Shown: positions 1,257 through 31,687, numbered from the stretch's first letter. The stretch: DNA of 64,000 nucleotides from an uncultured Poribacteria bacterium (GCA_958296135.2 CATQHZ020000001.1:1728001-1792000), one strand, 5' to 3'. The notes: generated by a model not told the origin, from the sequence alone. A program made the numbers and translations.

Positions 1257-1509
1257 TTTTTGTTCCTAGCGATTGTTCGGCTGCACCCGTGCAGTAGACG
1301 TTAACTTATTAGGCAGTCGAGACGATGTCTTGATTTACATTGATATTGCGAGGGACAGGTTTTCCCTCACCCTACGGGCCACAGCGAGTCTTCTGGCAAT
1401 GAAGTCAACATCGCGTTTAACGTCATGTTAGGATTTTCAGTTGACCTGAATGTGCAACGAACAACTAGAGAAGTCTGTCCTGATGGGCTGGGATTGGTAA
1501 GGTAGGCAA

Positions 1510-2346: not shown

Positions 2347-2420
2347 GATTTTTTTGACCTGCGCGAAGTGTGTAATTGGGGTAGGCGCGCTTTCAAAGCG
2401 CGCCTATAGGACTTTCCCGA

Positions 2421-3794: not shown

Positions 3795-3919
3795 ACCGCG
3801 CCTACCGAGTTTTCTGGTGAGGCCATGGGATGGCGAGTGCCAGTGGACATCTCTACAGCGAGGCTGCAGAGATGCCAGCGTTTCAGTGTAACGCCCCTCG
3901 GCTTACAGGCCGCGAGAGA

Positions 3920-5194
3920 TTATTTAGTGTTTCTCATGGAAACAATTCGCGTCAAAATCGCATCTGCTACGTCGCGTTTGGAGAGGCGCGGGAGCTCCTC
4001 GCATTTCCCACCCCGGTCTAATAAGGTGACAATGTTGGTATCCGATTCAAACCCGGCACCCTCGGCGAGAACATCGTTTGCAACGATAAGATCGCAGTTT
4101 TTGCGGACTAATTTCTTTTTGGCATTGTCAAGCAGATTCTCCGTTTCAGCGGCGAAGCAGACGAGAAATTGCTCGGTTTTACGTTCACCGAGGGTCTGCG
4201 CGATATCCGGATTCCTTTCAAATGCGAGCGTCAACGGCCCGTCCATCTTCTTTAACTTCTGCGGTGTCCGTTGAGTTGGACGATAATCGGCAGGGGCTGC
4301 CGCCATGACGACGACATCTGTCTCATCAAAAGCGCGCAAGACTGCCTCATGCATCTCAAGCGTTGTCTCTACACACCGGGTCGCGATACCTCTCGGTGCC
4401 GACAGGGTGGTGTGCCCACAGATGAGTAGCACGTCTGCCCCGCGGTCTCTCGCCGCTGCCGCGATGGCGCATCCCATCTTTCCGCTAGCGCGGTTGGTAA
4501 TAAAGCGGACCGGGTCGATGTATTCGCGTGTCGCTCCCGCTGTCACGAGAATTCGTGTGCCTTGCAAGTCATCGTGGCGAGGGACAGGTGCTCGCCCTAC
4601 GGGCAGCGGGAAGTCTTCGGCCGTTTCGGTAGGCGCGCTTTGTACGCGCGCCGCAAGCACCTCGGCGGCGTGTTGGAGAATTACATCTACCGTATTTAGC
4701 CGGCCAACGCCTTCATAGCCGCACGCTAAATCGCCGCTGGCAGGTTCAATGAAGTGGACTCCGTGCGCTTTCAGCGTCTCCATATTCCGTTGCACTATCG
4801 GATTGTGATACATGTGTCCGTTCATCGCCGGTGCGAGGAGGATTGGACAATGCACGGAAACAGCAACGGTAGAGAGCGCGTCATCGGCGATACCGTTGGC
4901 CATCTTCCCGATGATGTTGGCAGTCGCTGGCACAATCATGAGCAACGCAGCGCGGTCGGCGAGCTCGATGTGGGGCGGCTTCCAGTCGGTACCTGCGGCA
5001 AACAGGTCCAACAACACCGGATTTCGTGAGATAACTTGGAATTGCAGCGGCTGCACGAGGCGCGTGGCGTTGGCTGTCATCACGGTATGCACATCGGCAC
5101 CACGCTTGACGAGTTGACTCGCCAGATCTAGCGATTTGTGGATGGCGATGCCGCCGGTAACGCCTAAGATGATAGTCGGATCTCTGAGTTCCAT
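3920..5194 (-). CDS. coaBC: Bifunctional phosphopantothenoylcysteine decarboxylase/ligase CoaBC
   Basis: LGVTGGIA, PATANIIGK, APAMN, LACGYEGVGRL, TAGATREYIDPVRFITNRASGKMG, FAAET. Start taken as ATG 5194 (MELRDP). Confidence 0.96.
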   Translation of the reverse strand: MELRDPTIILGVTGGIAIHKSLDLASQLVKRGADVHTVMTANATRLVQPLQFQVISRNPVLLDLFAAGTDWKPPHIELADRAALLMIVPATANIIGKMANGIADDALSTVAVSVHCPILLAPAMNGHMYHNPIVQRNMETLKAHGVHFIEPASGDLACGYEGVGRLNTVDVILQHAAEVLAARVQSAPTETAEDFPLPVGRAPVPRHDDLQGTRILVTAGATREYIDPVRFITNRASGKMGCAIAAAARDRGADVLLICGHTTLSAPRGIATRCVETTLEMHEAVLRAFDETDVVVMAAAPADYRPTQRTPQKLKKMDGPLTLAFERNPDIAQTLGERKTEQFLVCFAAETENLLDNAKKKLVRKNCDLIVANDVLAEGAGFESDTNIVTLLDRGGKCEELPRLSKRDVADAILTRIVSMRNTK

Positions 5195-5391
5195 TTTATG
5201 AGTAGGACTTACAATCTCACGTTTTGACAAAGTTTCCGAATAGGAATAGGATTTGCATTGCGCCAGCCGAAGTAAAACATTGAATTGCATGGCGCGGGAC
5301 AGTGGACATATCTGCAGCGAGGCTGCAGATATGACAAAGTTTCGGCGTGACGCCCCTCGCCCTACGGGACGCGGGATGACGTTGTGAAGAT

Positions 5392-6063
5392 TTACCTCTC
5401 TTGTTGATTCTGGTTACGTTTGATGCTGAACCGTTGGTTAATCATTTCCGTTAAACCTGCATCAATTCGGCACCGTTCTGCTGCAATAATCGCCTGAGTT
5501 TGGGCCACAGCCTGTTGTAGCCCGCCATCGTGGTTGATGACGCAGTAGTCGTAGTGCGAGAGTTGGGAGATTTCGGATGTCGCTATAGTCAGACGCTGCG
5601 TCAGTTCTGCCTCCGATTCTGTTTTCCTGCCGCGGAGCCGTTCGTCCAAATTAGCAAATGCCGAAGGGACAATGAAGATGAGTAGGATTCGGGCAGTATC
5701 GGGCCCTATCTGCTTGCGGACTTGTAGAGCTCCTTGAACTTCAATCTCCAAAACAGCGTCTTTCCCCTCAGTTTGTGCCGCCACGATTTCAGAGTTAAGC
5801 GTGCCGTAAAAATTGCCGCCATATGCTGCCCATTCGAGGAACCCATCCTGTTGAATCTGGTTCTTAAATTCTGCCTTTGACAGAAAGTGATAATCCACGC
5901 CATCTACTTCGCGTGGGCGCGGCGCGCGCGTCGTTGCGGAAACAGCGAGTCTTAACGTCTCGTCGGCCTGGCAAAGCGCTTTGACGACGGTGCTTTTTCC
6001 CGAGCCAGACGGGCCTGAGATGACGACGACTAAATTGGGGTTATAGAAATCCGTACGTGCCAC
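5392..6063 (-). CDS. gmk: Guanylate kinase
   Basis: SGPSGSGKST, SATTRAPRPREVDGVDYHF, FLEWA...YGT, LEIEVQGA. Confidence 0.96.
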   Translation of the reverse strand: MARTDFYNPNLVVVISGPSGSGKSTVVKALCQADETLRLAVSATTRAPRPREVDGVDYHFLSKAEFKNQIQQDGFLEWAAYGGNFYGTLNSEIVAAQTEGKDAVLEIEVQGALQVRKQIGPDTARILLIFIVPSAFANLDERLRGRKTESEAELTQRLTIATSEISQLSHYDYCVINHDGGLQQAVAQTQAIIAAERCRIDAGLTEMINQRFSIKRNQNQQER

Positions 6064-6186
6064 GACATTTTTCCTGAACGGGTCCCGCCGCCGTTAGCGA
6101 TTTTCCGGGTGGAAACTGAGGCGATACGAGGGCAGTCCCTTGTCCTACGGTAAATAGGAGAGAACTCCTGATTACACCGCGCGTCC

Positions 6187-6645
6187 TTAGCCTGCAGCAT
6201 CCTCAAGTTCCAGCAGCACCGGGGATTCAATGCGGATAGCGTCTTTGATGCAGACTTCCTCGCAGAGTTTGCATCCGACGCAATCCTTCGGTTTGACGAG
6301 TTCGCAAATTCCGAAGAAACTTTCGGCATGCTCGCCAGTCTCGGGGTCTTTCAGTTCAAGACATTCCCACGGGCAGATATGGACGCAGAAATCGCACCCG
6401 GAGCAGAGTTCTTCGTAGATAACAGCGATCGGACGGTGCGTCGGGCGGCGGATGAATTTGCACACTTCGCCGAACTGGTCGCGGATTGCCTCGACCGGAC
6501 AAACCATCCCGCACGCGCTGCAATCAATACAAATGTTCGGATCGATGATGTGCAACATATTCCGGTCGCCGGTAATCGCGTCAACCGGACAATTGGTAAG
6601 GCACGCCATGCACCCGATACATTCATCAGTGATATAGTAGGCCAT
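6187..6645 (-). CDS. Polyferredoxin (four 4Fe-4S motifs)
   Basis: Four CxxCxxCxxxC motifs (CIGCMACLTNCP, CIDCSACGMVCP, CSGCDFCVHICP, CVGCKLCEEVCI); GGAGG RBS. Confidence 0.9.
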   Translation of the reverse strand: MAYYITDECIGCMACLTNCPVDAITGDRNMLHIIDPNICIDCSACGMVCPVEAIRDQFGEVCKFIRRPTHRPIAVIYEELCSGCDFCVHICPWECLELKDPETGEHAESFFGICELVKPKDCVGCKLCEEVCIKDAIRIESPVLLELEDAAG

Positions 6646-6728
6646 CAGTTGTTTACCTCCGATTTTATTTTACCACAAGGTCTGTGGATTTTCAAGGTAT
6701 TTTTTACTCCGCCGAACGTATTGGTAAA

Positions 6729-6757
6729 ATTATACCATCCCAAAGATTTAATGTCAA
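6729..6757 (-). promoter_or_regulatory. Sigma-70 promoter for ferredoxin-gmk direction
   Basis: Perfect TTGACA-N17-TATAAT on the minus strand. Confidence 0.75.
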
Positions 6758-6770
6758 GGAAAAATTAAAA

Positions 6771-6800
6771 TTGGCATTTTCCTAGCGAATCTGCTATAAT
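6771..6800 (+). promoter_or_regulatory. Divergent sigma-70 promoter for SDR gene
   Basis: TTGGCA-N18-TATAAT with extended -10 TG. Confidence 0.55.
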
Positions 6801-6872
6801 AAAAGATACCCAAATCCGGCAGCGGGGGACATCAAATCCCGCCGCGGAAAATCGTAGAAAAAGAGGCTCATA

Positions 6873-7643
6873 ATGAATTTAGGACTCAAGGATAAAGTTG
6901 TGATCGTAACGGGTGCAAGCCGCGGCATTGGACGCGCCATCGCGCACGGCTTCGCTGACGAGGGGGCACGGCTCAGCATCTGCGGCAGAACCCCCGAAAC
7001 ACTACAGAATGTAACGAATGAACTCATCGCGAAAGGCGCGGAAGTCTTCGCGAAACCGACAGATGTGACAGACACCGAACAAGTCAACGCCTTTATGGCG
7101 GTAACAGTCGAAAAATACGGCAGGATTGATGTCGTCGTTAACAACGTCGGCGGTAGCAGGAAGACCTCTTTGGCAGAGATTTCGGCTACCGAGTGGCATG
7201 AAGTGCTCGATCTGAATCTCGTCTCGGCTGCGCGGATTAACCAACAGGCTATCCCGACGATGCAGAAACAGGGGGGCGGTGTCATCTTGATGATAGCCTC
7301 TATTTACGGCAGAGAAGGCGGCGGCCATATCACCTATAACGCCGCGAAAGCCGCCGAGATTAGCATGGCGAAATCTCTCGCGAAGGAACTCGCCCCGGAT
7401 AATATCCGCGTGAACAGTATTGCGCCCGGGTCGATTCTATTCCCCGGCGGCGGTTGGGCACGCCGTATGGAGGCAGACCCGGGTGCGATGGCCGCTTTCG
7501 TTAAAAGTGATATGCCGCTCGGCCGTTTTGGGAAACCGGAGGAGATTGCGGACGTAGTCGTCTTCCTTGCTTCGGCACGCGCGAGTCTTGTTACAGGTGC
7601 TTGTATTAACGTGGACGGGTGTCAGTCGCATTCAAATATCTGA
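6873..7643 (+). CDS. Short-chain dehydrogenase/reductase
   Basis: TGASRGIG, VVNNVG, YNAAK, IRVNSIAPG. Confidence 0.93.
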   Translation: MNLGLKDKVVIVTGASRGIGRAIAHGFADEGARLSICGRTPETLQNVTNELIAKGAEVFAKPTDVTDTEQVNAFMAVTVEKYGRIDVVVNNVGGSRKTSLAEISATEWHEVLDLNLVSAARINQQAIPTMQKQGGGVILMIASIYGREGGGHITYNAAKAAEISMAKSLAKELAPDNIRVNSIAPGSILFPGGGWARRMEADPGAMAAFVKSDMPLGRFGKPEEIADVVVFLASARASLVTGACINVDGCQSHSNI

Positions 7644-7757
7644 CATTTGGGTCAATCATCCGAAACCTCTTTTTGTAGGAGCGAGCTCCAAACGACACCG
7701 CAACCAGGAGGTTGCTCCTATAAGGGAGAACGGATAGCACCGGCGTAAGAAAAAAAG

Positions 7758-7787
7758 TTGCATTTTCCGGTTCACATAGTGTATAAT
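7758..7787 (+). promoter_or_regulatory. Sigma-70 promoter
   Basis: TTGCAT-N18-TATAAT upstream of a GGAGG RBS and ATG 7819. Confidence 0.55.
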
Positions 7788-7818
7788 AGTCTTAACTTAA
7801 ACTGGGAGGTATTAACTG

Positions 7819-8202
7819 ATGGATATGAACGAACAGATCCTCCAAAAACTCCTAGAGATGGAGGAAGCACAGAAGGCGCGAGACGCTGCGGAGAAGGCGC
7901 GAGACGCTGATTTGGATGCTAGGTTAACAGCCCTAGAATCCGAGGTGAAGGAAATCCGCAAAGAGCAGGTCATCCAGGGCGTGAACCAAGCGAAACTGGA
8001 AGGCAAGTTGGAGACAGCGGAGACGAAACTAGGCGGCAACTTGGAGCGGTTGGAGATGAAAGTCGATAACTTCCTTTCCAACATGCGCGAGAGGAAGGCT
8101 GACAGCGGCGAACGGTGGAAAGTCGGTGGCATCATCGCCTCTGGCAGCATTGCGATAGCTTCGTTGATTTTGGCACTCTTGTCGTATTTCAACGGAAATT
8201 AG
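7819..8202 (+). CDS. Small coiled-coil protein with C-terminal membrane anchor
   Basis: GGAGG RBS; heptad-rich charged helix; C-terminal hydrophobic IIASGSIAIASLILALLSYF; internal 21-bp tandem duplication (KARDA twice). Confidence 0.7.
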   Translation: MDMNEQILQKLLEMEEAQKARDAAEKARDADLDARLTALESEVKEIRKEQVIQGVNQAKLEGKLETAETKLGGNLERLEMKVDNFLSNMRERKADSGERWKVGGIIASGSIAIASLILALLSYFNGN

Positions 8203-8478
8203 GGGCTCTTAAAAAACGCCACGCGCGAAACAAGCATGGCGAGGGGAACCCTCGGCGATTAGCGATCGCCGGGCCCTCGCCATGTGCTCACATTGGAAGC
8301 GGGTACCTCCTCGCCACCGAAGATTCGTTTCCACCACGGATGCTTCTCGGGTTTCACGTTAACTTTGGAAGACATACCTTATAAGGTGCTGCTTCCGATA
8401 TCATTTCCGCGAGTTCACTGAGATTCGCATATTCTGCGAATATCCTGTCTCTGAATCCATGAAATTGGCCCGGACAAT

Positions 8479-9291
8479 TCATCTCGCCTTCATGCGCTTG
8501 ACTGCATCTAACTTCGTCTGTTGCCAATCTGTCCAATCTTTTTCCCCTTCATACCGCACTATGTCGTGAATCGTTGCGCGCGGTTGGTAGGTAATGTAAT
8601 TGCCGGTGTGCCAGCCGAGGTTCCGATAAATCATGAAATCGCCGGGTCCCAGGTGCACCTGCACCGCGCCCGGAAACTGCCGGCAATGTTCCAAGCATAG
8701 CCGTTCCATCTCAACGTTGGACACCCCTTCGGTTGGTTTGCGCAACCTCGGTTCGTTCGTTGTCTGCTGTTCGCCGGGCAAATCCCATTGGCGCAGATGG
8801 CTTCCGGGGACGAACCATGTGCACGAATCGGCATAAATTGCGCAGTTCACCTGGTTGAAATGACGCAAGTCATACCAGACTTCCGCCAATTTCGCGTTGA
8901 CAATCTCGTCGCGCGCTTCGGACGGCACCTCCACAACGCCATCCCGGTGCCAGCCGATGTGCCACGGATACTCAAGCGGTTCAACGAGCAACCCCATGAT
9001 GTCAACGTGCCCATGTGTGTAATTATCACCGAGCAGTCGTTGAATAGCATCGCGCAGCTCGGGCAATTCGGTGTAGTCATAAAAAGGCCGGAGCTCAAGT
9101 TCGTCGCCATAGTTTGATAGCGGCTGAATGCGCTGCGTCTGCGCTCCGTTGCGAGTGTGCGCCAGGTGTCGTGCTTTCTCTGCCTCTCGGCGCAAGTCGG
9201 TTAACAACGCCGGTGGGACAATCCCCCGGAAAATCAGATAGCCTTGCGAGAGATACTCGTCTACCATTGAATCGTGAAATTGGAATGCCAT
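8479..9291 (-). CDS. Phytanoyl-CoA dioxygenase (PhyH) family Fe(II)/2OG enzyme
   Basis: QGYLIFR, WHRDG (HxD), VPGSH, distal WHTG. Confidence 0.88.
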   Translation of the reverse strand: MAFQFHDSMVDEYLSQGYLIFRGIVPPALLTDLRREAEKARHLAHTRNGAQTQRIQPLSNYGDELELRPFYDYTELPELRDAIQRLLGDNYTHGHVDIMGLLVEPLEYPWHIGWHRDGVVEVPSEARDEIVNAKLAEVWYDLRHFNQVNCAIYADSCTWFVPGSHLRQWDLPGEQQTTNEPRLRKPTEGVSNVEMERLCLEHCRQFPGAVQVHLGPGDFMIYRNLGWHTGNYITYQPRATIHDIVRYEGEKDWTDWQQTKLDAVKRMKAR

Positions 9292-9478
9292 GTGGACTTC
9301 CTTATGTCTCCGAATTATGTCTCATTTAGTTTACACAATTTTGGGGAAATATGCAAGGGCGGAAACCATAGAAATCCGCCCTTACAATTGGTGGAATAAG
9401 GCGTTGTACCATTTTTGCAAATTGAACGTTAATATAAATAAGAACTTTACGCCGAATCGTCTCAACAAGGAGCATTGC

Positions 9479-11260
9479 ATGCAGTTAAGAATTCGGGACT
9501 TACGCAAAAATCTACATGGCCTACGGGGTGCGTTCCGCGTCAGTCCTAAAATTATCAGTTTCATCGCCGCCCTATTATCATGTTTGTGGGGGATAGACGT
9601 GGATGCATCGGGCATCGGGCATCGCGACATTTTCGTCGGAGCCAGCGCGCGCGCTGTTGGTATGGGGAGTGCTTTCACCGCCGGGCCCTCGACAAACAAC
9701 GCCTTCTTATGGAACCCCTCCTCACTCGGATTTATGGATGGGTTAGAATTGGCGTTCGGTGGCGTGCCGGTTTCAGGAAGCACATCGGGTAGAGATGGCG
9801 CGTTTTCAGTGGCGGCGAGCCCGAACGCGCTCGGAATAACTCAGAAAAATGTCGGCAGTCTCTCTATTGCCTCGTGGCTCGATGGCTGGAACACGCCCGA
9901 CACCGGCACCGATGTTACGCAGATTGTGCTTTTAGGTTACGGCCTCGCCATCAGCGAACAGGTGTCAGCCGGCGCGAATGTCCGCTATTGTCAGAATATC
10001 GATGCCATCCGAACCAACTACCTCTGGAGCGCAGACCTCGGGATGCAGCTGACTTACCCTATTGAAAAATGGAATGATACCTTCACGATGGGGATGAGCC
10101 TAACCGAATTGAGCAGCGGCATCAGGGTGGATGGACAGCTCATTGAACCGTCGCCTATCGCCGCGCGGTTCGGAATGACTTACGCGTGGGGCAGTGAAAC
10201 GTTGTTCTCCGCAGATTTTGCCCACTATGTGCAAAACCAACTTGACCGGTTAGAACGTTTCCGATTGCACCTCGGCGCGGAACGGTGGCTTTTCAACGGA
10301 CACTTCGGTTTACGAACTGGCTATACCGCGCTCACCTCCTCCGAGAGGTTCCGGCACGGCGAATGGACAGGGGGAGTCAGCCTCCGCAATGCTTATGGGC
10401 AATTGGATTACGCTTACGTCACCGGCAGTGAACTTGAGCAAAACTTGCACTGGATTTCGGCGACGGTGCGCTGGGACGATAAGAGCAACTTCCACACAGC
10501 GACACCCCACGCAGCAGCCAACTCAAAACCTATAGCAAACCCGAGACCTGAAAAAGTCAGTAAACCGCCGGAGACAAAATCTCGCGATGTAGGAATGCCG
10601 ATTTTAATGCCGAAGACGCTTGAGGCACCAGAAACCGCCTCGGGACCCGTAGTAGCAGAGAAACCTGTCTCTCATCGTGTAGAAACAGCGTTGCAAGTCT
10701 CCGAAACCACAATTTCACCGAATAACGACGGTGTCGCGGATAGCACCACATTCCGCTTTGAAGTCGACGCGAACGACACATGGACATTGTCCATCCGTGA
10801 CGAATACACAGAGGACGTGTGGGAACAATCAGGGGCAGGTTCGCCACCCCCAGAAGGGATTGTCTGGAACGGAACTGCAAACACCGGCAAACCCGTAGTC
10901 GATGGTATCTATGAGGTGCAGCTGAGCGTCGGAGATACACAAAACGCAGCGGTAAATAGCCAAAAAATCACCGTAGACATTGGGCCGCCACCGAAACCGA
11001 CAGAAGAAACCCCCGCGTCGCCGATGTGGTGCTTGATGGTAGGCTCCTTTGCGTCGCAGCGCAACGCCGAATCGCTGGCAGCAGAGTTACGCCGTTTGCA
11101 CCCGGATGAGAAGGTAGCAATCTATACGGTGTCTGTCAACTCGCAAACGATGCATCGGGTAACAATCGGCGAATTCTCGGAACGTGCAGCATCGGCGGCA
11201 CTCACGCAACACATTAAAGAGACGCAAGGCGTTGAGCCGGTGCTGATTGCGTTGCAATGA
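9479..11260 (+). CDS. Outer-membrane PorV/FadL-like beta-barrel + FlgD-type Ig + SPOR domain protein
   Basis: AAGGAG RBS before ATG 9479; GASARAVGMGSAF...FLWNPSSLG; ISPNNDGVAD...WNG...DGIYEV; C-terminal VGSFASQRNAE...HRVTIGEF. Confidence 0.75.
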   Translation: MQLRIRDLRKNLHGLRGAFRVSPKIISFIAALLSCLWGIDVDASGIGHRDIFVGASARAVGMGSAFTAGPSTNNAFLWNPSSLGFMDGLELAFGGVPVSGSTSGRDGAFSVAASPNALGITQKNVGSLSIASWLDGWNTPDTGTDVTQIVLLGYGLAISEQVSAGANVRYCQNIDAIRTNYLWSADLGMQLTYPIEKWNDTFTMGMSLTELSSGIRVDGQLIEPSPIAARFGMTYAWGSETLFSADFAHYVQNQLDRLERFRLHLGAERWLFNGHFGLRTGYTALTSSERFRHGEWTGGVSLRNAYGQLDYAYVTGSELEQNLHWISATVRWDDKSNFHTATPHAAANSKPIANPRPEKVSKPPETKSRDVGMPILMPKTLEAPETASGPVVAEKPVSHRVETALQVSETTISPNNDGVADSTTFRFEVDANDTWTLSIRDEYTEDVWEQSGAGSPPPEGIVWNGTANTGKPVVDGIYEVQLSVGDTQNAAVNSQKITVDIGPPPKPTEETPASPMWCLMVGSFASQRNAESLAAELRRLHPDEKVAIYTVSVNSQTMHRVTIGEFSERAASAALTQHIKETQGVEPVLIALQ

Positions 11261-11283
11261 TGCCGAGTAATGCCAAACGCGTT

Positions 11284-12123
11284 TTAAATTGCATAAAATT
11301 CCAAAGCGTTCTGATAGAAGAGGCGATTTTTCTCTGCATCGGAGGCATCGGCAACGGCATAAAGGAGCGCGACCACCCACTCACGATAGGTGGCGGCTAG
11401 GGTGCAGACGGGCCAGTCACTCCCGAACATAAGCCGCTGATATCCAAACGCCGCCACGAGGTGCCGGATGTATGGCTTCAGTTCTTCGGGTGTCCAATTT
11501 TCGCTAGCAGTTGTCACAATGCCGGAGACTTTGCAATGGACATTCTCAAAGGCGGCGAGTTCGCGTATGTGGGTTGCCCACGGCTCCAATTCGCCGCCTT
11601 TTATATTGGGGCCGCCGCAGTGATTCACGGCATGCCTGACATCAGGAGTCGCCTTCACCAATGCAATGGCGGCAGGAAGCTGCTCATGTTTCGCGCAAAG
11701 TTCAAAGGAGAGGTTAAACTTCGGCAGTAACTTCACGCCTGCAATCAGTTCAGGACTTGCATAGAATTGATTACCCGGGAGATGCCATGCCATCCGCCGA
11801 ACCGCGACGACCCGCTCAAACGCAGCGAGTTGTTCAAGAACAACTTCGGCATTCGGTTTTTCGAGCGGTGCAGCCGCGGCTATCGCGCCTATCATCCCAT
11901 CTTTCTCGGCGATGTCGGTTAACCACTCTACTTCTTGGACGACTTGGGTTTCGCTCGGGTCGCCTTCAACGTGAACCGATTTAACCACGTTCAAATCGCC
12001 GATGGCCTCGCGATAATCCTGTGGTGTATACCGCTTCCGCAGCAAGTCAAAACCGTCTAGCCACGGGTATTCCAAATTGGCGGTATCCCAAAGGTGTTGG
12101 TGTGTATCAATAATCTTGAGCAT
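11284..12123 (-). CDS. Amidohydrolase family 2 (L-fuconolactonase-like)
   Basis: IIDTHQHLW, NHCGGP, CKVSG, RLMFGSDWPV. Confidence 0.9.
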   Translation of the reverse strand: MLKIIDTHQHLWDTANLEYPWLDGFDLLRKRYTPQDYREAIGDLNVVKSVHVEGDPSETQVVQEVEWLTDIAEKDGMIGAIAAAAPLEKPNAEVVLEQLAAFERVVAVRRMAWHLPGNQFYASPELIAGVKLLPKFNLSFELCAKHEQLPAAIALVKATPDVRHAVNHCGGPNIKGGELEPWATHIRELAAFENVHCKVSGIVTTASENWTPEELKPYIRHLVAAFGYQRLMFGSDWPVCTLAATYREWVVALLYAVADASDAEKNRLFYQNALEFYAI

Positions 12124-12385
12124 AATTTGTCTCCGCTTTGCGAGTTATGCCAAATTAATTTAAAAGGAAATAAACAGGGCATTGCTGTCCCGATACAACC
12201 AAAGGTGCAGTGAATACACACGATGTCTTTATCCAGAGTAGGAGGGACATCCCTGTCCCGATACAACACGCATCGAGAACGGTTGGCAGCAAGTGCCAGT
12301 CCTCCAAGAAGTCTCTCCTACGGGGATACTTCATCTGAGCCCGTGCAAGGGCGGATATGAACGGCATCCGCCCTGACAGTTTCTA

Positions 12386-13168
12386 TCAACGTGCCTTGAG
12401 GCCGCCCCAGGTTGTGGTGAGTTTACCTTGCGGTTGCACCGCGAGGAATTCTCCATCCATTACCTCCTGGATCTCGTCTTCAGACAACGCACGGTTGAAT
12501 ATATAGAATTCATCCATGAGGCCATCGAACCATCTACCATTTTTATGATGCCCGATTTCGGCTTGGACACCCCAGTTATCGGAGAGTTCCCCGCCGCCTT
12601 TCGCCTCGTGCGTCTCCTTCCCATCAATGTAGGTTTTCGCCGTACCGCTTTTGCTATCATAGGTGCCGGTAAAGTGAACCCACTTGCCGCCTTTGATAAC
12701 CGGCCCCGGATTGATGTTGAAGACCTCTTTTTCGGCACCATCCCGATGGAACCATCGGAAGCCGCCGGGACGGATTTCGACGTGGTAGAGCCCACTGCCG
12801 TGGTCTGTCCCGATAGCGTCAAAGATACTCTGCGGCTCTGCCGAGTCATTGTGATTCACCCAAACGGCGATAGTGATACCTTCAAGCGGGACGTTCTCAA
12901 ACTCGGGGCCATTCAAGTCCACCCATGTATTGGGCTCCAAGACAATGGCTTTTTCGATGACACCGTCTTCGCGGACGGCTTTGCCTTCAATTTTCCCATC
13001 GTTCCCGTAGATGGAGCCATCTTTGACGGTATCGCCGTTGCCATCAAAGTTGTAGTAGACAGACAAAGTCGCATCGCTGAGGTCTGCCTCCACTGAAAGC
13101 GCGCACGCGCCCAGCAGGCATACGACAGCGAGGTAAACATGAAGGAATTTTATGGAATTGTAAGACAT
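12386..13168 (-). CDS. Secreted LamG / concanavalin-like domain protein
   Basis: Signal peptide; YYNFD, WVHFTGTYD, YIDG, FDGLMDEFYIFNRALS; C-terminal AVQPQGKLTTTWGGLKAR. Confidence 0.88.
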   Translation of the reverse strand: MSYNSIKFLHVYLAVVCLLGACALSVEADLSDATLSVYYNFDGNGDTVKDGSIYGNDGKIEGKAVREDGVIEKAIVLEPNTWVDLNGPEFENVPLEGITIAVWVNHNDSAEPQSIFDAIGTDHGSGLYHVEIRPGGFRWFHRDGAEKEVFNINPGPVIKGGKWVHFTGTYDSKSGTAKTYIDGKETHEAKGGGELSDNWGVQAEIGHHKNGRWFDGLMDEFYIFNRALSEDEIQEVMDGEFLAVQPQGKLTTTWGGLKAR

Positions 13169-13399
13169 CTGATCCTCCTTAAAGTTGTGTCGGTTTGTAT
13201 TTTTAGCGTTTCGCGTTGCTTAATCGAACGCTCGCGAGGAATAAGTTTTCCCTCGCGCTACGGAAAAAGTTGAAATTCCATTGCAAACATTATAGCATAA
13301 AACCGTCGAAAATGGAAATGGAATTTTTCCTGTGCAGAACTGGCTCCGAATGCATTTTGGGAATGAAATTGCATTATTTCCGCGAGCGTCCCTTATACG

Positions 13400-22910: not shown

Positions 22911-25365
<2,455 letters not shown>

Positions 25366-25425
25366 GGTGGTTTGCCTCCCTGTCGTTAAGAAATTTATAT
25401 CAAATGGAAAACGAGACATATCAGG

Positions 25426-28400
25426 TTAGTAGGGTATCTGTTGCTGCGGAGCCGCATTCTCTTCTTCCTCCGCCGCCCACTCTTTCAGAAGGATACCCCG
25501 TTCTGCCAGTGCCACCATTTCAGTTTCAAGAGCTCTCTCGTCTTCCGCTTCCGAGCCGGTCAGAATGATGCCTCTCTGTTCCAACTTTTCGCGTTCGGTA
25601 GAAAGATTGCAGATGGATTGCTTCTCCGCGTGAACGCTTGGTTCTGCCGAGAGCATTTTACGCAGTTTCTGCATCGCTTTATGGACAGTGATTTCGCTTA
25701 TGCCGAACACCTCCAACAAGAGTCTGGCATCAAGAACATGCCGCCATTCGTCGTTTTTGCACTCGTTAAACGGCTTCATCCGACGTTCACGAATATTTGT
25801 AAACAACTCCCCTCCTGCCATCAACTGCCCATCGGTGAGTTCACGCACATCCAATGTCGGTAATGTTCGGAGCGAGTTTAACTTAATTTTTCCGCGCCCT
25901 GCCTGCTGTTTTCCACTATGCATCCAGTGGCAGAACCATCCCAACGTGGAATTGCACCATAGCGTGAACACTACTTCGTGCCGCGAGTCTACAAACTTAA
26001 CATTCGTTATTGCACTGACACCGATGGAGGGGGCCTCGGTAAACATCGCCAGTTGGGATGTCGCACTGAATGTCGGGAGCATATAATAGTGTGCGCGGCT
26101 GTTAACGCTCAGCACTTTTTCGAGTTGATGACGGTTTTCGCGCCGCACGAACCCCCGCGAATCGGGTTGGATAACCATCCCTCTCTGCTGTTGACAGTTG
26201 GCGCGCGAGATGCAGGGATACCCATCGCTTTCTGTGTCGTCAGTCTTCACGACATCCAGCGGTCCTTTTTTGCCACGGATTACGTCAGAATGGAATCCAA
26301 TTTCGGCGATGTCTTCAACATGACAAATTGGGATATTGAGATGCTTCGTTTGGAGAGGCAGACATATTCGCGCGTGGCGCAAGTGGTGGGCAACTTGGAG
26401 CAACGCCATCGATTTCGTTCGGTTCGCACTCCACGTATCGTTAAGCGGCAGCGGACAGTCCAATAGGTTGCCAATAGGTTGTGAACCAACCTGAAGGGTA
26501 TCACCTCCGCTTGGTAGGTTCTCGGCCTGCTGGACGTTTTTTAACCGATGGATGCTGTTCGCGATGAATTCAGCTTCCAAGTTGCTTTCGGGCCGCTGTT
26601 TCAGGCAGACGAATGTGCCTCTCCCGGTGTTTTTTCCAACCCCTTTCTTCGCGACTACCATGCACTCGGCCATGTTAGTATCAGCGGAGAACGCGCAGTC
26701 GGAAGCTCTCGCCGCTGCAATCGTCACAACGACAACGTCACGGTATTCGGTTGCTAACATGTTTCGCAATTTCGTGGCACTAGATCCGGCGAGAACCGCG
26801 GCAGTGAGGATAAACCCCATCGTCCCCCCGGGGCGCAACTTCCGATCGGCGAGGTCGATGAAATACGAACCTAGCCCGTATTGCCCATTAGCAACCCGGG
26901 AATCTTTTCTTTGGAGGGCATTCTGCATTTCTTTCTTGTCCTCCTCAGAGTGGAAGTTACTTTGGAATACAGACCGAGGCACTTCACTTGAATTTTCTGC
27001 GCCCGGACGTATAAACGGCGGGTTTTGGATGACAATGTCCATTTCGCCATCGGGAAATTCCCGTTTTATCTCAATAGATGTGCGCTCCGTACCACCAACC
27101 TGCTCGCCTTCGTTTTCCATCTCGTCAAAAAGCAGTTGGGTGTCAAGCAGTTCCAATGCTCCCACAGCGTAGGTGTCTGTATGCCGCTTCCCGTAAGGCG
27201 CGGTGATAACACGGGTTGCCCCGAGGGGTATGCTCGGCTGCGCGCTCGCCATCGTAGCAAACGTAATGTGCGTCGCATTCGGCATAATGTCAGTTCCCGC
27301 CAGATTGTTCTCCAGCATCTCCCTGTGGATTTCGGAGGCATCCCCACCGTTTTGTTCCCAGAGAGCCTGCACGCGCTTGTAAACGCCGTTCAGCAAAGAG
27401 CCCGTCCCACAAGCAAAATCCGCCACCTTCGGTAACCGTCCATTTGGCAGCTCAGGACACACTAATGCGGATAGCAGTGCGGCACTTGTCGGCAGGGTGT
27501 AGTTCGCCTTAATGTATTTCCTATCAACGATGAGCCGCTGGAATACCTCGCCCGCGAGTTCATGAATCTGCGAGAGTCTTGACTGCACGAGGTTGTTCGC
27601 CGCCGCGCACAGTTTTTGAAGCAGCTTGTTCACAAGAGCACCGTCGGTAGCGAATGCCTCTACCATCCGCTTGGCATCCCAAAAAATCGGCTGGTAGTTT
27701 ACCGCGAGGATAGTTTCCCAATCGTCTACGACAGCAGCCCAATTCATTACTCGTAACCGCTGTTCCAGAGATTTCACGGACTCCACCCGCTCTTTTCCCG
27801 CCAGCGAATCTTGGAACACGAATGCATCCGTGATGATAAGGCATGCCATCCGCGCAGTCTGTTTTCCGCGCTCCTGATGCAGGATAGCTTCCAAACTGTC
27901 ACCGATAGCCGGACGTTCCTGAACGGCGCGGTGTAACCATTTCGCAGCGACGTTAATCTCACGTTCTAGTTCCTCGGCAGCTTCGTCAATGCGTTCACTC
28001 GGCACTGCACCGACGTGTAGGGCATTTGCGACATCTCCCACCGTTCCTTTCGCAAACCCTTTGCAAGGGAACCGATACGGCTCGCCGTGACTTTGTCCCA
28101 TTAACAGATACTCCAACTCGTCTGTCTTGCGCAACCGCTCCTCAATGTCACGCTGTTCCACCCTTTGCAACCACTTCGGGTATCGAATTGCCATGACGGT
28201 GTGCATCGTATCGGTTACGTCAATGTAGTCCATTTCTAGCAAGCATCCGATGTGTTCCTGTGCCTGTGCAACAACATCATCAGACGAACCGATATATTTC
28301 GCCTCAATAGCGACAGGCTCATGCCCCTCTTTCGTCATAATAATGTCCGGTTGCCGTTGGCTGTATCGCAGCGGCTTTTGCTGCTGCCGCAGCGTCCAAC

Positions 28401-28467
28401 TTTTGCTCATGCTGTCCAAAATGCGGACTAGTTCATTTGTTATGGTGTTCTCGTTTTGTCTTAACAT
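25426..28467 (-). CDS. Fused type IIG-like restriction-modification enzyme (endonuclease + N6-adenine MTase + target recognition)
   Basis: N-terminal PDII...AIEAK (PD-(D/E)xK); VADFACGTGSLL (motif I); IQNPPF (motif IV); C-terminal WCNSTLG...LPTLD TRD-like region. Confidence 0.85.
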   Translation of the reverse strand: MLRQNENTITNELVRILDSMSKSWTLRQQQKPLRYSQRQPDIIMTKEGHEPVAIEAKYIGSSDDVVAQAQEHIGCLLEMDYIDVTDTMHTVMAIRYPKWLQRVEQRDIEERLRKTDELEYLLMGQSHGEPYRFPCKGFAKGTVGDVANALHVGAVPSERIDEAAEELEREINVAAKWLHRAVQERPAIGDSLEAILHQERGKQTARMACLIITDAFVFQDSLAGKERVESVKSLEQRLRVMNWAAVVDDWETILAVNYQPIFWDAKRMVEAFATDGALVNKLLQKLCAAANNLVQSRLSQIHELAGEVFQRLIVDRKYIKANYTLPTSAALLSALVCPELPNGRLPKVADFACGTGSLLNGVYKRVQALWEQNGGDASEIHREMLENNLAGTDIMPNATHITFATMASAQPSIPLGATRVITAPYGKRHTDTYAVGALELLDTQLLFDEMENEGEQVGGTERTSIEIKREFPDGEMDIVIQNPPFIRPGAENSSEVPRSVFQSNFHSEEDKKEMQNALQRKDSRVANGQYGLGSYFIDLADRKLRPGGTMGFILTAAVLAGSSATKLRNMLATEYRDVVVVTIAAARASDCAFSADTNMAECMVVAKKGVGKNTGRGTFVCLKQRPESNLEAEFIANSIHRLKNVQQAENLPSGGDTLQVGSQPIGNLLDCPLPLNDTWSANRTKSMALLQVAHHLRHARICLPLQTKHLNIPICHVEDIAEIGFHSDVIRGKKGPLDVVKTDDTESDGYPCISRANCQQQRGMVIQPDSRGFVRRENRHQLEKVLSVNSRAHYYMLPTFSATSQLAMFTEAPSIGVSAITNVKFVDSRHEVVFTLWCNSTLGWFCHWMHSGKQQAGRGKIKLNSLRTLPTLDVRELTDGQLMAGGELFTNIRERRMKPFNECKNDEWRHVLDARLLLEVFGISEITVHKAMQKLRKMLSAEPSVHAEKQSICNLSTEREKLEQRGIILTGSEAEDERALETEMVALAERGILLKEWAAEEEENAAPQQQIPY

Positions 28468-28573
28468 GACTTACTCCGTTAAAATTTTTAGGAAACCAGT
28501 CTCCAAACGGTATCGCTAGCGTCGGCGATTTTTAATTAGGATACGATGAGGTGACAAAAAAAGTCAACTATTT

Positions 28574-29182
28574 TTACACAACGTCATCAATCGCTTCGCA
28601 AACGTCTACGATGAAATTGACGGCCCGCTCCGAATCAGCAGGAGAAATCGGCCAACGAATCGCAGGCTGACCTGGGGAACTCGGGGCCCAGTCTGCCTCG
28701 TGGACAATCTGATTTCGGCGGTTGACGATGACCAAAAGCTGCGTCTTCACCTCTAGACCGGTGAGGTTGAGTTTCGCAGCAACAGCCGGCCACAACTCAC
28801 ATGAGGAAAAGAGCCGCACTGCATCGGCTATCTTGTCGGGGTGTTGCAACGCCTGATAGCCATGCTTTTTGCGGATCTCCGACTCAAGCCACTCGTTACG
28901 TCCGGGCCGAGCAATTGCTTCTATCACTGCATCCATGGCGACTTGGAAGCGCGAGAAAGCTTTCGTCTGTGGGCGTTTGCCATCGTATCCCTCCAGCATG
29001 CCAATCCGCGTGATTTCGTGGATGTAGAGGTCCATCGCGCTCACGGCCAGCACGATTTGCGAGCGGAGGAGATCCGTCAAATCCACGGCGGGGGTTGTCA
29101 ATTGGCCGAATGCGTGATATAAACCTCCGAGGGCGCGGACCCGTTCCATATTTTCTCGAAATTGTCCAATAGGGCTATTCAT
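28574..29182 (-). CDS. HEPN-domain protein (putative RNase)
   Basis: DLLRSQIVLAVSAMDLYIHE N-terminal helix and RNQIVH (Rx4H) motif; overlaps the upstream ParA stop by 8 nt. Confidence 0.8.
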   Translation of the reverse strand: MNSPIGQFRENMERVRALGGLYHAFGQLTTPAVDLTDLLRSQIVLAVSAMDLYIHEITRIGMLEGYDGKRPQTKAFSRFQVAMDAVIEAIARPGRNEWLESEIRKKHGYQALQHPDKIADAVRLFSSCELWPAVAAKLNLTGLEVKTQLLVIVNRRNQIVHEADWAPSSPGQPAIRWPISPADSERAVNFIVDVCEAIDDVV

Positions 29183-30281
29183 CTTTCGTCAGTGCGATGA
29201 TCCGGTCCGCGCCTGCGGCGAAGAGTTCCCGAAACTTCGACATCGCCTCCTTGGTATTTTCAAGAGGGTTTCCTGTTTGTCCGATTTGCGCATCAGTCAG
29301 CTCAAAAACCGGGGCTTTATATTCTTGTGAAAGCGCGATGAGACTGTTGAAGTCTGATACCTGGAGAAGTGGCCGTGCTATCATGAGTTCTCTCATGAAT
29401 TCTGGAAATAGGAGTTGGTCCGGTTCTGCGGAATCCGAGGCAATCCGGCTTGCCTCCTCATATCGCGCGTCAGGAAGGAGCATATCGTTTTCCCTAAGAG
29501 CGGGAATAAGCCTTGTCTCAATTCCGAATTTGATTTTGTCAATCCACCTTTGAAAGGCGCGAGCAGGAGTATCATCCCTGACGCGATAATTCTGAATTAT
29601 CGTTCCCAGAAACTTGGGTGACTTATCTGGGAACGGATAAATCGCGTCTTGTAAGAGAGAGGAAGTTTTTGCGTGCTTTGCCCACGCGGACCACTTCGGC
29701 AAAATTGAGGCAAGGCTCTCTGTCGCCATTGCGGAGAAGTAGTCCGGAAACATCGGCACGATGAAATAGTTGCTCGTCATGAGCAGATTCTGGTTCATCG
29801 GTCCAACGCTTGGGCTCATGTCCACCAAGATAAAATCGGCATCGTATTTCTCCGCGGTTTTCTCGAAAAGATGGTGGAGAGAGCCCGGCAGATTCTTGAG
29901 GGTGACTAGGGAACCGGATAACTCTTGTGCGATCCCCAAAGTAACTTCGTATCCGGCAATGCCGATGTGCCCCGGCAACAGGACCATATTCGGCTGGTCT
30001 TGGATTGGCTCACAAACTACCGGTTCAATGACTACGGGCCGTGATTCAAAAGCAGGGGAAAGTCCATTACGGATATTCCTCACCTCTTCGGATTCATAAA
30101 TTGAGTCAAAATCCCTGGCACCCTCAAACCCGAGCACCATGCCGGTGAGGTTACACTGCGGATCGCAGTCAACGATGATAACCTTCTTTCCTTTGTTGGC
30201 CAGCATCCAGCCGAGATTGAAGGTAGTCGTCGTCTTGCCGACACCGCCTTTGTGGTTGAAAAGCGCGATCTGTTTTGCCAT
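29175..30281 (-). CDS. ParA/MinD-family ATPase, long variant
   Basis: Deviant Walker A NHKGGVGKTT, DCDPQCNLT, LVDMSPSVG; 368 aa; no parB nearby. Confidence 0.88.
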   Translation of the reverse strand: MAKQIALFNHKGGVGKTTTTFNLGWMLANKGKKVIIVDCDPQCNLTGMVLGFEGARDFDSIYESEEVRNIRNGLSPAFESRPVVIEPVVCEPIQDQPNMVLLPGHIGIAGYEVTLGIAQELSGSLVTLKNLPGSLHHLFEKTAEKYDADFILVDMSPSVGPMNQNLLMTSNYFIVPMFPDYFSAMATESLASILPKWSAWAKHAKTSSLLQDAIYPFPDKSPKFLGTIIQNYRVRDDTPARAFQRWIDKIKFGIETRLIPALRENDMLLPDARYEEASRIASDSAEPDQLLFPEFMRELMIARPLLQVSDFNSLIALSQEYKAPVFELTDAQIGQTGNPLENTKEAMSKFRELFAAGADRIIALTKDE

Positions 30282-30314
30282 CGTAATTCTCCGATTGGGT
30301 TCTGTTTGGTGTTA

Positions 30315-30343
30315 ATTTTATCATAAACCGATGTTGATTTCAA
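30315..30343 (-). promoter_or_regulatory. Sigma-70 promoter of ParA-HEPN operon
   Basis: TTGAAA-N17-TAAAAT with extended TG. Confidence 0.6.
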
Positions 30344-30473
30344 GGAAAAATTGTCAATTAATACCAATTCAGGAGAAGCAGCCTCTTTGAGTAGGGGCCG
30401 ATACGTTTTTCTATAGACATATAGAGGTCCTAGCAGACCTAAAGAAGCGTTCCAAGAGACAGAACCCCTCCTA

Positions 30474-30830
30474 ATCCTGGAAATCCTGCTTCAGACAGTA
30501 AGAAAACGAAATGCTCCAGCTCTCTCCGGCACGACTTCCCCTACCGTCAATCCTGCCTCAAGAAGTGCGCGCACCGATTCAATATCGGAGGCGGGTCTGA
30601 CAGTTGTGCCCTCTCGCACAGGCTCAAGCACCAGCACCTCCCGGCCATCAATACCAGCATCAGTCAGGAGCGCGTCGCTGTGGGTGCTGATGGGACTATC
30701 CTGTTCAAAGTCGAGGTTAATTGATGATATTATACACGCTGTGTGTCTACTTGTCAACTTAAACAGGCAGCTCTGTATGAAAACGTCAATAGCACCAACA
30801 ACATCATCCTGAAAATCCTGCTTCAGACAG
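30474..30830 (+). repeat. 25-bp direct repeat pair
   Basis: ATCCTGRAAATCCTGCTTCAGACAG at 30474-30498 and 30806-30830 (one mismatch). Confidence 0.85.
30491..30700 (-). pseudogene. Remnant of the C-terminus of an ABC/AAA_21-type ATPase
   Basis: ISTHSDALL...EVLVLEP...EGTTV...ALLEAGL resembles the H-loop and tail of such ATPases; no N-terminus; bracketed by 25-bp direct repeats. Confidence 0.5.
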
Positions 30831-30843
30831 AATAAAAATTTTC

Positions 30844-30872
30844 TTGACATATTCCCCGAATTTCCATAAGAT
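30844..30872 (+). promoter_or_regulatory. Sigma-70 promoter
   Basis: TTGACA-N17-TAAGAT upstream of GAGGAG RBS. Confidence 0.55.
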
Positions 30873-30904
30873 ACATCCACAGAGTCAAAAACGAGGAGAA
30901 GACA

Positions 30905-31687
30905 ATGGACAACCTAGAGATGCTCCAATATCTGTTTGACTTGCAGGGATACATCGTCATTGAAGATGTGCTGACACCCGCCGAGGTCGCGGAGCTGAAC
31001 AACCTTATTGACGCGCAGCAACTGCCGCCGCCCGGAAAAATCCGACGCTTCGGCGGTGCAGCAGGCGGCGCGCCCGAAGGCTCCGGATTTCTGGAATGGG
31101 GACACCCCTTCTGCGAGCTACTCGATCATCCCCGCATCTTGCCGATGCTCCAGTTCATGCTCGGAGATAGCATCCGGCTGGACAGGATTTACGGTATGTA
31201 TATGGAGGAAGGCATGTCCGCCGGGGCACTGCACGGCTCGAATACGCCGTATTCGCCCGGCGAATTCTATCACGTCCGAGACGGCAGGATTCATAACGGG
31301 TTCACGGTGGTGACGTGGAATTTGGCGGATACAGGACCGGACGCTGGCGGATTCTGCTGTATCCCCGGCAGCCATAAGAGCAACTTTAAACTTCCACAGG
31401 AAGTCTTCAAGGCACCGGAGAAGGCGAGCTGCGTGACGGTTCCGGTGGCGAAAGCCGGCTCGGCAATCCTCTTCTCGGAGGCCCTGACGCACGGCACGGC
31501 GATGTGGACAGCGAAGCATCAGCGGCGTTCGCTCCTGTATAAATACTGCCAATCGCAGATTGCGTGGGGTGCTGGGCGCGTCAGACCGCCGTCCAACGTT
31601 GAATTGACCTCTCGCCAGAAATTGCTCTTTTTGGAACCGGCGAATCCGGGGAATTTTTATCCATCCCTTTTCGCCGCAGCCTCGTAG
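30905..31687 (+). CDS. PhyH-family Fe(II)/2OG enzyme, HGS variant
   Basis: FDLQGYIVIEDVL, LHGS in place of HxD, IPGSHK, THGT, RR. Confidence 0.87.
   Translation: MDNLEMLQYLFDLQGYIVIEDVLTPAEVAELNNLIDAQQLPPPGKIRRFGGAAGGAPEGSGFLEWGHPFCELLDHPRILPMLQFMLGDSIRLDRIYGMYMEEGMSAGALHGSNTPYSPGEFYHVRDGRIHNGFTVVTWNLADTGPDAGGFCCIPGSHKSNFKLPQEVFKAPEKASCVTVPVAKAGSAILFSEALTHGTAMWTAKHQRRSLLYKYCQSQIAWGAGRVRPPSNVELTSRQKLLFLEPANPGNFYPSLFAAAS

Follow-up and report, generated by a model that had tools for sequence, protein, structure and literature searches.

We analysed a stretch of DNA of 64,000 nucleotides (nt) from an uncultured Poribacteria bacterium (GCA_958296135.2 CATQHZ020000001.1:1728001-1792000), referred to below as the window. 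Its minus strand carries a row of three co-oriented genes. The first (29175..30281, minus strand) encodes a ParA-like ATPase of 368 amino acids (aa), a SIMIBI protein with a deviant Walker A motif and a helical, conserved C-terminal half of ~160 aa. The second (28574..29182, minus strand) encodes a 202-aa HEPN RNase-type protein from a ParA-linked subfamily of RiboL-PSP-HEPN, and its ATG lies inside the last ParA codons (ATGAATAG), giving an overlap of 8 nt. After a gap of exactly 106 bp (28468-28573), the third gene (25426..28467, minus strand) encodes a type IIG-like enzyme of 1013 aa, with nuclease and N6-adenine methyltransferase on a single chain. An earlier note, made from the sequence alone, had described a promoter, a long ParA-family ATPase (KGGVGKTT) with no parB, an overlapping HEPN gene with an intact Rx4H motif (RNQIVH) and, about 106 bp further on, a co-oriented nuclease-methyltransferase fusion. 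We found these elements as placed, and detected no ParB among the 19 neighbouring open reading frames (ORFs) scanned. The note had also proposed that the ATPase gates the HEPN RNase as a fail-safe when restriction is inhibited, and had treated the three genes as one arrangement. Our comparative data point instead to a two-gene ParA-HEPN module, next to which the enzyme is probably an independent resident.

A scan of one genome per species yielded 80 related loci in at least 14 phyla: Poribacteria (19 loci), Chloroflexota, Latescibacterota, Planctomycetota, Nitrospirota, Desulfobacterota, Omnitrophota, Tectomicrobia, KSB1, Pseudomonadota, Acidobacteriota, Actinomycetota, Bacteroidota and Cyanobacteriota. 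The earlier note had suggested checking whether the two genes are conserved together, and a full-length ParA homologue was indeed found immediately upstream of HEPN in 77 of the 80 loci; in two of the remaining three a contig end interrupts the locus, and the third (L065) is without ParA. Of 69 full pairs, 67 have a spacing of -6 to +37 nt between the ParA and HEPN alignments, and insertions of 386 and 871 nt split the two genes in L008 and L027. When the 1,101 ORFs of the 80 loci were clustered, no third gene common to them emerged, the next cluster being present in 6/80. ParA and HEPN co-vary in their identity to the window copies (r=0.86, 69 pairs), as expected of genes that are inherited together, and both genes are under purifying selection, with a ratio of non-synonymous to synonymous substitution rates (dN/dS) of 0.12-0.15 for ParA and HEPN alike among three congeneric genomes. 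Because ParA lies directly upstream in 77/80 loci, the pairing goes far beyond chance, and we regard ParA-HEPN as one conserved functional unit.

Decayed copies were also found. HEPN was broken next to an intact ParA in five loci (L009, L031, L036, L061 and L072), whereas a stop in ParA next to an intact HEPN was seen in one (L044); these are low counts, and metagenome-assembled genomes or metagenome bins, in which errors are possible, make up many of the records. The asymmetry of five against one fits toxin-antitoxin (TA) logic.

The ATPase matches the Pfam families AAA_31 (E 3.4e-30) and CbiA (E 3.8e-16). Its Walker A region reads FNHKGGVGKTT, with the deviant Walker A motif HKGGVGKTT at residues 10-18. 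An alignment of 34 sequences shows no variation at K11, G12, G13, V14, T17, T18, D38, D40 or D154 and at least 90% conservation at K16, and the protein bears the marks of SIMIBI ATPases with a deviant Walker A: the signature lysine and the Walker A'/switch and Walker B aspartates. An AlphaFold2 model (predicted local distance difference test score, pLDDT, 88.4) has Soj (2bek, E 9e-13) as its best solved match. The C-terminal half also aligns across phyla, with W197, W200, Y215, P216, G226, Q230, P260, L314, P324 and F350 invariant or near-invariant and variation confined to residues ~275-300. Such conservation is more easily squared with an unchanging protein partner or a generic ligand than with a phage sensor that evolves fast.

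The HEPN protein matches PF18735 (HEPN_RiboL-PSP) with an E of 2.5e-10 and 41 bits, against a cut-off of 28.4. Its catalytic motif is intact: in RRNQIVHE (R155-R156-N-Q-I-V-H161-E162), the Rx4-6H pattern is satisfied by R156-NQIV-H161, and R155, R156, H161 and E162 are invariant in 31/31 aligned homologues. Among relatives, 7/7 tested passed PF18735, which was the best match in all seven, while PF18737 (MAE_28990/MAE_18760-like) gave no match to the window HEPN and sub-threshold matches in 3/7. When the HEPN model was compared with solved structures by VIA-align, HEPN proteins, including SO_3166 and HepT-type toxins, occupied six of the top seven rows at Z 9.6-11.4 (2hsb, Z 11.4; 5yep_B, Z 11.0; 7ae2, Z 9.6), in a range where Z below ~13 is weak for helical bundles. 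The protein further matches phrog_13503 at 5e-30, a PHROG family without known function.

This HEPN family is large. We found 317 close homologues at E<=0.001 among 474 candidates scored, and a profile search returned 1,524 clusters (50% identity, E<=0.001), of which 250 reach E<=1e-30; the 150 best profile matches are all stand-alone proteins of 134-315 aa. In a sample of Poribacteria, PF18735 was present in 59/151 genomes and 8/22 genera, and 25 of the best 30 PF18735 loci in this phylum sample were ParA-linked. The five loci without ParA include the four top scorers against the Pfam model, and all five are unrelated to the window HEPN by tblastn. ParA linkage is therefore a property of one subfamily inside PF18735. 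We take the ParA-linked HEPN family to be a distinct, strongly conserved RiboL-PSP-HEPN subfamily, other than the MAE_18760 family named in 2013.

Mobile elements carry the pair as well, with both proteins full-length (ParA 38-40% and HEPN ~31% identical to the window copies). Two records of Pseudomonas Pf filamentous phages, AY324828.1 (L087) and PV296014.1 (L088), contain a ParA-like gene followed by one for a 202-aa HEPN homologue. The pair of PV296014.1 has the integrase on one side and the regulatory region on the other, and the HEPN ORF of AY324828.1 lacks an annotation. The pair was also present in 13 Burkholderia plasmid records, of which nine are predicted to be conjugative, three mobilisable and one non-mobilisable, and genes for integrases, resolvases or transposases flank it in L008, L041, L054, L055, L062 and L070. 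One plasmid record annotates the two proteins as 'AAA family ATPase' and 'HEPN domain-containing protein'. A literature search for Pf4 or prophages with ParA and HEPN found no paper on a Pf-borne pair. When viral contigs were scanned with the HEPN alignment, none of 42 pattern matches was confirmed; the patterns fit the close subfamily only, so this is not evidence of absence. In a quick tree of ParA, sequences were mostly grouped by phylum (16 label changes against a minimum of 13), and a few placements crossed phylum borders; for instance, Latescibacterota sequences fell within the clade of Poribacteria, and a single Poribacteria copy joined Caldilineaceae. The chromosomal sites of the pair differ between genera. 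Identical ParA-HEPN loci were noticed in a Dehalococcoidales bin (L038) and a Hadarchaeota bin (L039). They are probably one sequence binned twice or mis-binned, and the lone 'archaeal' occurrence of the pair is for this reason untrustworthy.

We then compared the neighbourhood of the pair with more distant genes of the same loci. Pfam families of restriction-modification (R-M) systems (E<=1e-10) accounted for 11/294 proteins, in 9/78 loci, among the two nearest ORFs per side. In a distal control of 147 ORFs, drawn randomly from 402 lying at least five genes away, one ORF matched (one-sided Fisher p=0.05 by protein and 0.03 by locus). PADLOC matches were obtained for 16/150 immediate neighbours and 8/147 distal ORFs (p=0.074), which became 14 and 4 (p=0.015) after the analyst had removed evident false matches by hand (ABC transporter, UvrB, RNase D, transposase and dGTPase).

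In about one in eight loci the pair is flanked or enclosed by restriction-type systems that are unrelated to one another: type I, ISP, III, IIG, DUF1156 and BREX. Embedding in a type I operon was seen in 3/80 loci (L042, L043 and L049), the window not being among them. L043 has the order hsdM-hsdS-ParA-HEPN-RhuM/Fic-Schlafen-hsdR, and its HsdR matches that of EcoR124I (1e-25); the core hsdM-hsdS-ParA-HEPN also opens L042 and L049. Directly downstream of HEPN and co-oriented with it, as the type IIG-like gene is in the window, L003 has a type ISP enzyme and L014 a DUF1156 methylase. In L008 a type III res gene and a mod fragment enclose the pair, which is found near another IIG gene in L005, and between brxC (E=0) and pglX (matching solved BrxX, 1e-229) in L078. 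The last is a BREX-type locus of Desulfamplus magnetovallimortis (NZ_LT828540.1, locus coordinates 21-13187) in which four genes or gene sets, PDC-M28B, PDC-M28C, ParA-HEPN and PDC-S27, are inserted between brxC and pglX; its pglX ORF is only 848 aa long and may be truncated. The pair thus recurs beside unrelated restriction-type systems and depends on none of them. Since these partner systems are mutually unrelated, any functional tie would be to restriction in general and not to the enzyme in the window. The fail-safe idea of the earlier note is accordingly supported in part, as a tendency, by the recurrence at roughly one locus in eight, and not in its link to this particular type IIG enzyme, homologues of which tblastn detected in 0/80 pair loci.

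The enzyme itself has the motifs PD...EAK (residues 39-57), DFACGTG (~350) and NPPF (~483), that is, an N-terminal PD-(D/E)xK nuclease and motifs I and IV of an N6-adenine methyltransferase on one chain, and it matches Eco57I in Pfam (E 7.7e-10, 39.6 bits against a cut-off of 25.3). The N-terminal PD-(D/E)xK nuclease, the gamma-type methyltransferase, the long C-terminal region and the Eco57I match liken it to MmeI-like type IIG/IIL enzymes. Curated IIG, PglX and MAD2 models, however, show weak similarity only (E 1e-6 to 1e-8, over short stretches), and the family is unnamed. Homologues in public data number at least 930, at ~985-1005 aa, and the named ones are all annotated as 'hypothetical protein' of Candidatus Poribacteria.

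Two congeneric genomes (G001 and G002) carry the ParA-HEPN pair at the same site as the window, between the hydrolase and PhyH genes and at 85% nt identity. Their ~3-kb slot between HEPN and the hydrolase gene is occupied by small ORFs plus a Gp49/HigB-like plus antidote pair in G002, and by a PD-DExK protein, 231-aa and 549-aa proteins and an antidote gene in G001. An additional AAA_21 ATPase gene precedes ParA in both genomes, together with a HEC-01B-like gene in G001.

The host genome (5.2 Mb) contains a single ParA-HEPN pair and 12 copies of the enzyme, of which 11 are intact. Besides the window copy these are ten intact full-length paralogues (G000:C1 3376275-3379517, 4076245-4079199, 1812746-1816006, 4024256-4027339, 1244326-1247532, 4252195-4255227, 1191642-1194758, 3001119-3004232, 3311657-3314863 and 2359993-2362911) and a frameshifted one (G000:C1 2769724-2772700), at 41-59% identity. 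DFACGTG and NPPF/Y are present in all ten intact paralogues and PD..(E/D)xK in all but one; the copy at 1191642-1194758, when read from its first ATG, is without the N-terminal nuclease region. The two nearest genes on each side of the paralogues are housekeeping or unannotated, and no ParA-HEPN pair lies beside any of them. Because of the 0/80 loci, the varied slot in G001 and G002 and the 11 copies away from any pair, the enzyme is a neighbour of the ParA-HEPN unit and neither a part nor a conserved partner of it. One site, bounded by M55 peptidase and glyoxalase genes on one side and sulfatase and M28 peptidase genes on the other, holds an enzyme paralogue in the host genome (L092, G000:C1:1807746-1821006); in seven further genomes of Poribacteria (L019-L024, L061) it is occupied by a ParA-HEPN pair. 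Enzyme genes and ParA-HEPN pairs thus use common insertion hot spots, which explains their adjacency in the window. An expansion to 12 copies of a single-chain R-M-like enzyme in one genome is unusual and may deserve its own study. Beside one paralogue (L099, G000:C1:2354993-2367911), eight co-oriented tandem ORFs of ~88-224 aa, mostly 201-224 aa, were noticed at locus coordinates 207-4926; two of them were scanned and had no Pfam match.

Genes surrounding the trio in the window are metabolic (sulfatase, enolase-type racemase, decarboxylase, alpha/beta hydrolase, PhyH dioxygenase and major facilitator superfamily transporters), and the trio is therefore a small islet and not a portion of a large defence island. 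A promoter-like site upstream of ParA (30315..30343, minus strand; TTGAAA-17-TAAAAT, extended TG, 10/12 consensus matches) is a pattern match only and, taken alone, weak evidence of a promoter, because ten such sites were found in the same 6-kb stretch against 4.9 expected. A weak promoter-like site (28538..28567, minus strand; TTGACT-18-TATCCT, 9/12 matches) lies in the 106-bp gap before the enzyme gene. No terminator-like site was found on the minus strand after the HEPN gene, so co-transcription of HEPN and the enzyme is neither shown nor excluded. A look-up of sequencing runs containing this DNA listed four, all from one study and as contigs only, and none of RNA. We found no repeat array near the pair and no small ORF or conserved winged helix-turn-helix gene upstream of ParA, and an Rfam scan of 25000-31200 gave no match at E<=0.1.

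Further observations concern the edges of this islet. The enzyme gene ends 6 bp before the start of the co-oriented alpha/beta-hydrolase gene (24124-25419), and with only 6 bp between the two, its transcription may run on into this downstream housekeeping gene. On the other side, the intergenic region upstream of ParA is enclosed by a 33-nt direct repeat, whose two copies (30474-30506 and 30806-30838) are 332 nt apart and share 88% identity, and a perfect TTGACA-17-TATAAT lies within the enclosed region (30729-30757, minus strand). Similarity to the two congeneric genomes ends at ~30690-30806, where those genomes carry their extra AAA_21 gene. The repeat may mark a cassette junction.

Pairs of this kind have been predicted before. 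Anantharaman et al. (2013; PMC3710099) described a ParA/Soj+HEPN dyad, with a HEPN of the MAE_18760 family and ParA proposed as the antitoxin, and their Table 1 enters RiboL-PSP-HEPN as 'operon with ParB'. More recently, Li, Burroughs & Aravind (bioRxiv, Oct 2026; 10.64898/2026.10.19.760177) computationally predicted two-gene 'ParA-effector systems' to be immune, with HEPN RNases as effector type (v), and ParA genes inside type I R-M to be second-line defences. In this preprint, ParA is proposed as a DNA-sensing interceptor with the effector as back-up, rapidly evolving C-terminal extensions of ParA are proposed to bind invader DNA, and a three-gene ParA-HeH-HEPN system of Salmonella, which differs in architecture from the window pair, is named as the one characterised relative. 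Like the ParA-effector systems, our loci combine ParA with an enzymatic effector in two genes (77/80) and have no third conserved gene. By sequence marks the window ParA resembles ConB1/PriB1, with Asn before Walker A, Val within it and DxD followed by Q (FNHKGGVGKTT, VDCDPQ). The accessible main text of the preprint does not name its HEPN family, and the likeness is one of architecture and marks. The pair also shares with the dyad of 2013 the gene order, the ATPase in antitoxin position and a HEPN RNase as toxin, whereas its HEPN belongs to the PF18735 family and not to MAE_18760. It is an addition to an already predicted kind, with a HEPN family that differs from the one of 2013.

Other HEPN systems resemble the pair in part. 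HEPN-MNT (HepT-MntA) type VII TA systems likewise have a small stand-alone HEPN toxin with an enzyme-type neutraliser encoded just upstream, and the solved HEPN toxins 5yep_B and 7ae2 are among our best fold matches, but the partner of the window HEPN is a ParA ATPase and not a nucleotidyltransferase. PrrC combines an ABC-type nucleoside triphosphatase (NTPase) and a HEPN domain in one polypeptide, and is an anticodon nuclease embedded in type I R-M. Similarly to PrrC/RloC, a putatively NTPase-controlled HEPN is located between hsdS and hsdR in L042, L043 and L049, together with RhuM/Fic, a combination that has been described for PrrC-type neighbourhoods; unlike there, the ParA-type ATPase and HEPN are separate proteins, and most copies, including that of the window, lie outside type I operons. 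The ParA partner and the separate polypeptides rule out membership in HEPN-MNT or PrrC. A PADLOC search, which the earlier note had advised, likewise ruled out a PADLOC-named system, as no system model matched. The novelty expected there is reduced by the appearance of the dyad among the predictions of 2013 (PMC3710099) and 2026 (10.64898/2026.10.19.760177).

We consider it fairly probable that ParA-HEPN is a self-contained, horizontally mobile two-gene module, an RNase gated by an ATP switch, and that its adjacency to the enzyme reflects shared hot spots. In such a module the dimerising ParA-type ATPase would be a nucleotide-dependent switch that restrains the HEPN RNase. ParA would release or activate HEPN upon a signal, for which foreign DNA and loss of the module are the likeliest candidates, and the ensuing RNA cleavage and growth arrest would follow a TA or abortive-infection logic. 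That ParA and HEPN physically interact and that HEPN is an active RNase are inferences, as are the trigger and the direction of control: ParA could be an antitoxin, as suggested in 2013, or a DNA-sensing interceptor with a back-up effector, as suggested in 2026. In the genus of the window the pair would be a vertically kept resident of one chromosomal site beside a variable slot, filled in the window genome by a type IIG-like R-M gene that is presumably independent and self-sufficient. The adjacency of the two would then be an instance of defence or selfish cargo clustering at hot spots and would not require an obligate three-part machine.

Several results weigh against this reading. The C-terminal half of the window ParA is well conserved, unlike the rapidly evolving extensions that the preprint ascribes to ParA-effector systems, and mean column identity across phyla is 64-68% for ParA and HEPN, which does not look like an arms race. 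Unless the ParA stop next to an intact HEPN in L044 stems from faulty assembly, it speaks against a constitutively lethal toxin. The HEPN model is of moderate quality (pLDDT 70, residues 78-127 poor), and Foldseek found no match to it in the PDB at E<=0.001. In PADLOC-DB 2.0, 0 families match HEPN, and ParA is matched over residues 2-50 (the P-loop) only, by the candidate model PDC-M28B. Longer, fused HEPN or ParA-HEPN proteins were not found, in a search that we rate as weak evidence. About 85% of pair loci have housekeeping neighbours only, and the enrichment of R-M and defence genes around the pair is a modest, borderline tendency (p 0.015-0.07), obtained with non-independent loci and controls from the same loci. 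Finally, the literature on HEPN with ParA yielded no experimental study of a pair of ParA and a RiboL-PSP-type HEPN.

Alternatively, ParA, HEPN and the 1013-aa enzyme could be one three-gene system, in which ParA frees HEPN when this enzyme is inhibited. The shared orientation, the short HEPN-enzyme gap without a minus-strand terminator-like site, and the methylase enzymes of other families placed directly downstream in L003 and L014, with pglX one gene further in L078, would agree with such a system. It is difficult to reconcile with the lack of an enzyme homologue near any of the 80 pairs, with G001 and G002, which retain the pair and have other genes in the slot, with the 11 enzyme copies that reside amid housekeeping genes without a pair, and with the promoter-like site within the gap. 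We consider it improbable, as these comparative data largely refute an obligate three-gene system, and with it the arrangement put forward in the earlier note. A pure addiction module, in which ParA would be an ATP-dependent antitoxin that binds or phosphorylates HEPN and the pair would stabilise its carrier DNA, with no phage sensing or restriction back-up, shares more features with the observed loci. These include the antitoxin-first order with translational overlap, carriage on plasmids and an integrating filamentous phage, strong conservation with low dN/dS and no arms-race divergence, the more frequent loss of the toxin gene than of ParA (five loci against one) and the presence of other TA genes in the same slot of G001 and G002; the ParA/Soj-HEPN proposal of 2013 (PMC3710099) is of this type. 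Embedding in type I R-M and BREX operons and beside RhuM/Fic, Schlafen, MORC-like and PDC candidates is, however, the classic place of an accessory defence effector, and addiction would not require the pair to be kept vertically for so long at a single chromosomal site of the genus. TA and abortive-infection roles are not mutually exclusive. We regard addiction as the sole function as rather unlikely.

A role outside genetic conflict, with ParA positioning or partitioning cellular cargo and HEPN serving as an adaptor or housekeeping RNA-processing factor, seems very improbable to us. The closest solved relatives of ParA are Soj/ParA partition ATPases, most loci have housekeeping neighbours, and conservation is high; yet the distribution is patchy (as seen for PF18735 in the Poribacteria sample), chromosomal sites vary among genera, phages and plasmids carry the pair, the RNase-type catalytic residues are invariant, and neither ParB nor a repeat array lies nearby. 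A partition function was rejected on account of the absent ParB and the patchy distribution. Returning to the self-contained two-gene module, we tentatively extend it to a portable, R-M-agnostic 'guard' cassette, which may fire when DNA-level immunity is bypassed or a rival element enters, and which would act in an abortive manner against phages or plasmids with a partition-type ATPase as its sensor. We see this extension as possible and would not call it likely.

Conceptual novelty is limited, as the idea of ParA with HEPN is already in print, and the practical value lies in a well-defined two-gene candidate. To the published predictions our analysis adds a distinct subfamily, its recurrence beside restriction-type systems without dependence on them, and insertion hot spots held in common with a 12-copy type IIG-like family. 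Sponge symbionts, bacteria of soil and freshwater, and cyanobacteria commonly carry the pair, and it has relatives on Pseudomonas Pf phages and Burkholderia plasmids. If it works as we infer, it would represent a compact gating of a suicidal RNase by a partition-type ATPase. A guard cassette of this kind, if real, would be widespread, at ~1,500 clusters at 50% identity, and would fit beside or into type I, ISP, III, IIG, DUF1156 and BREX systems as well as Pf phages and plasmids.

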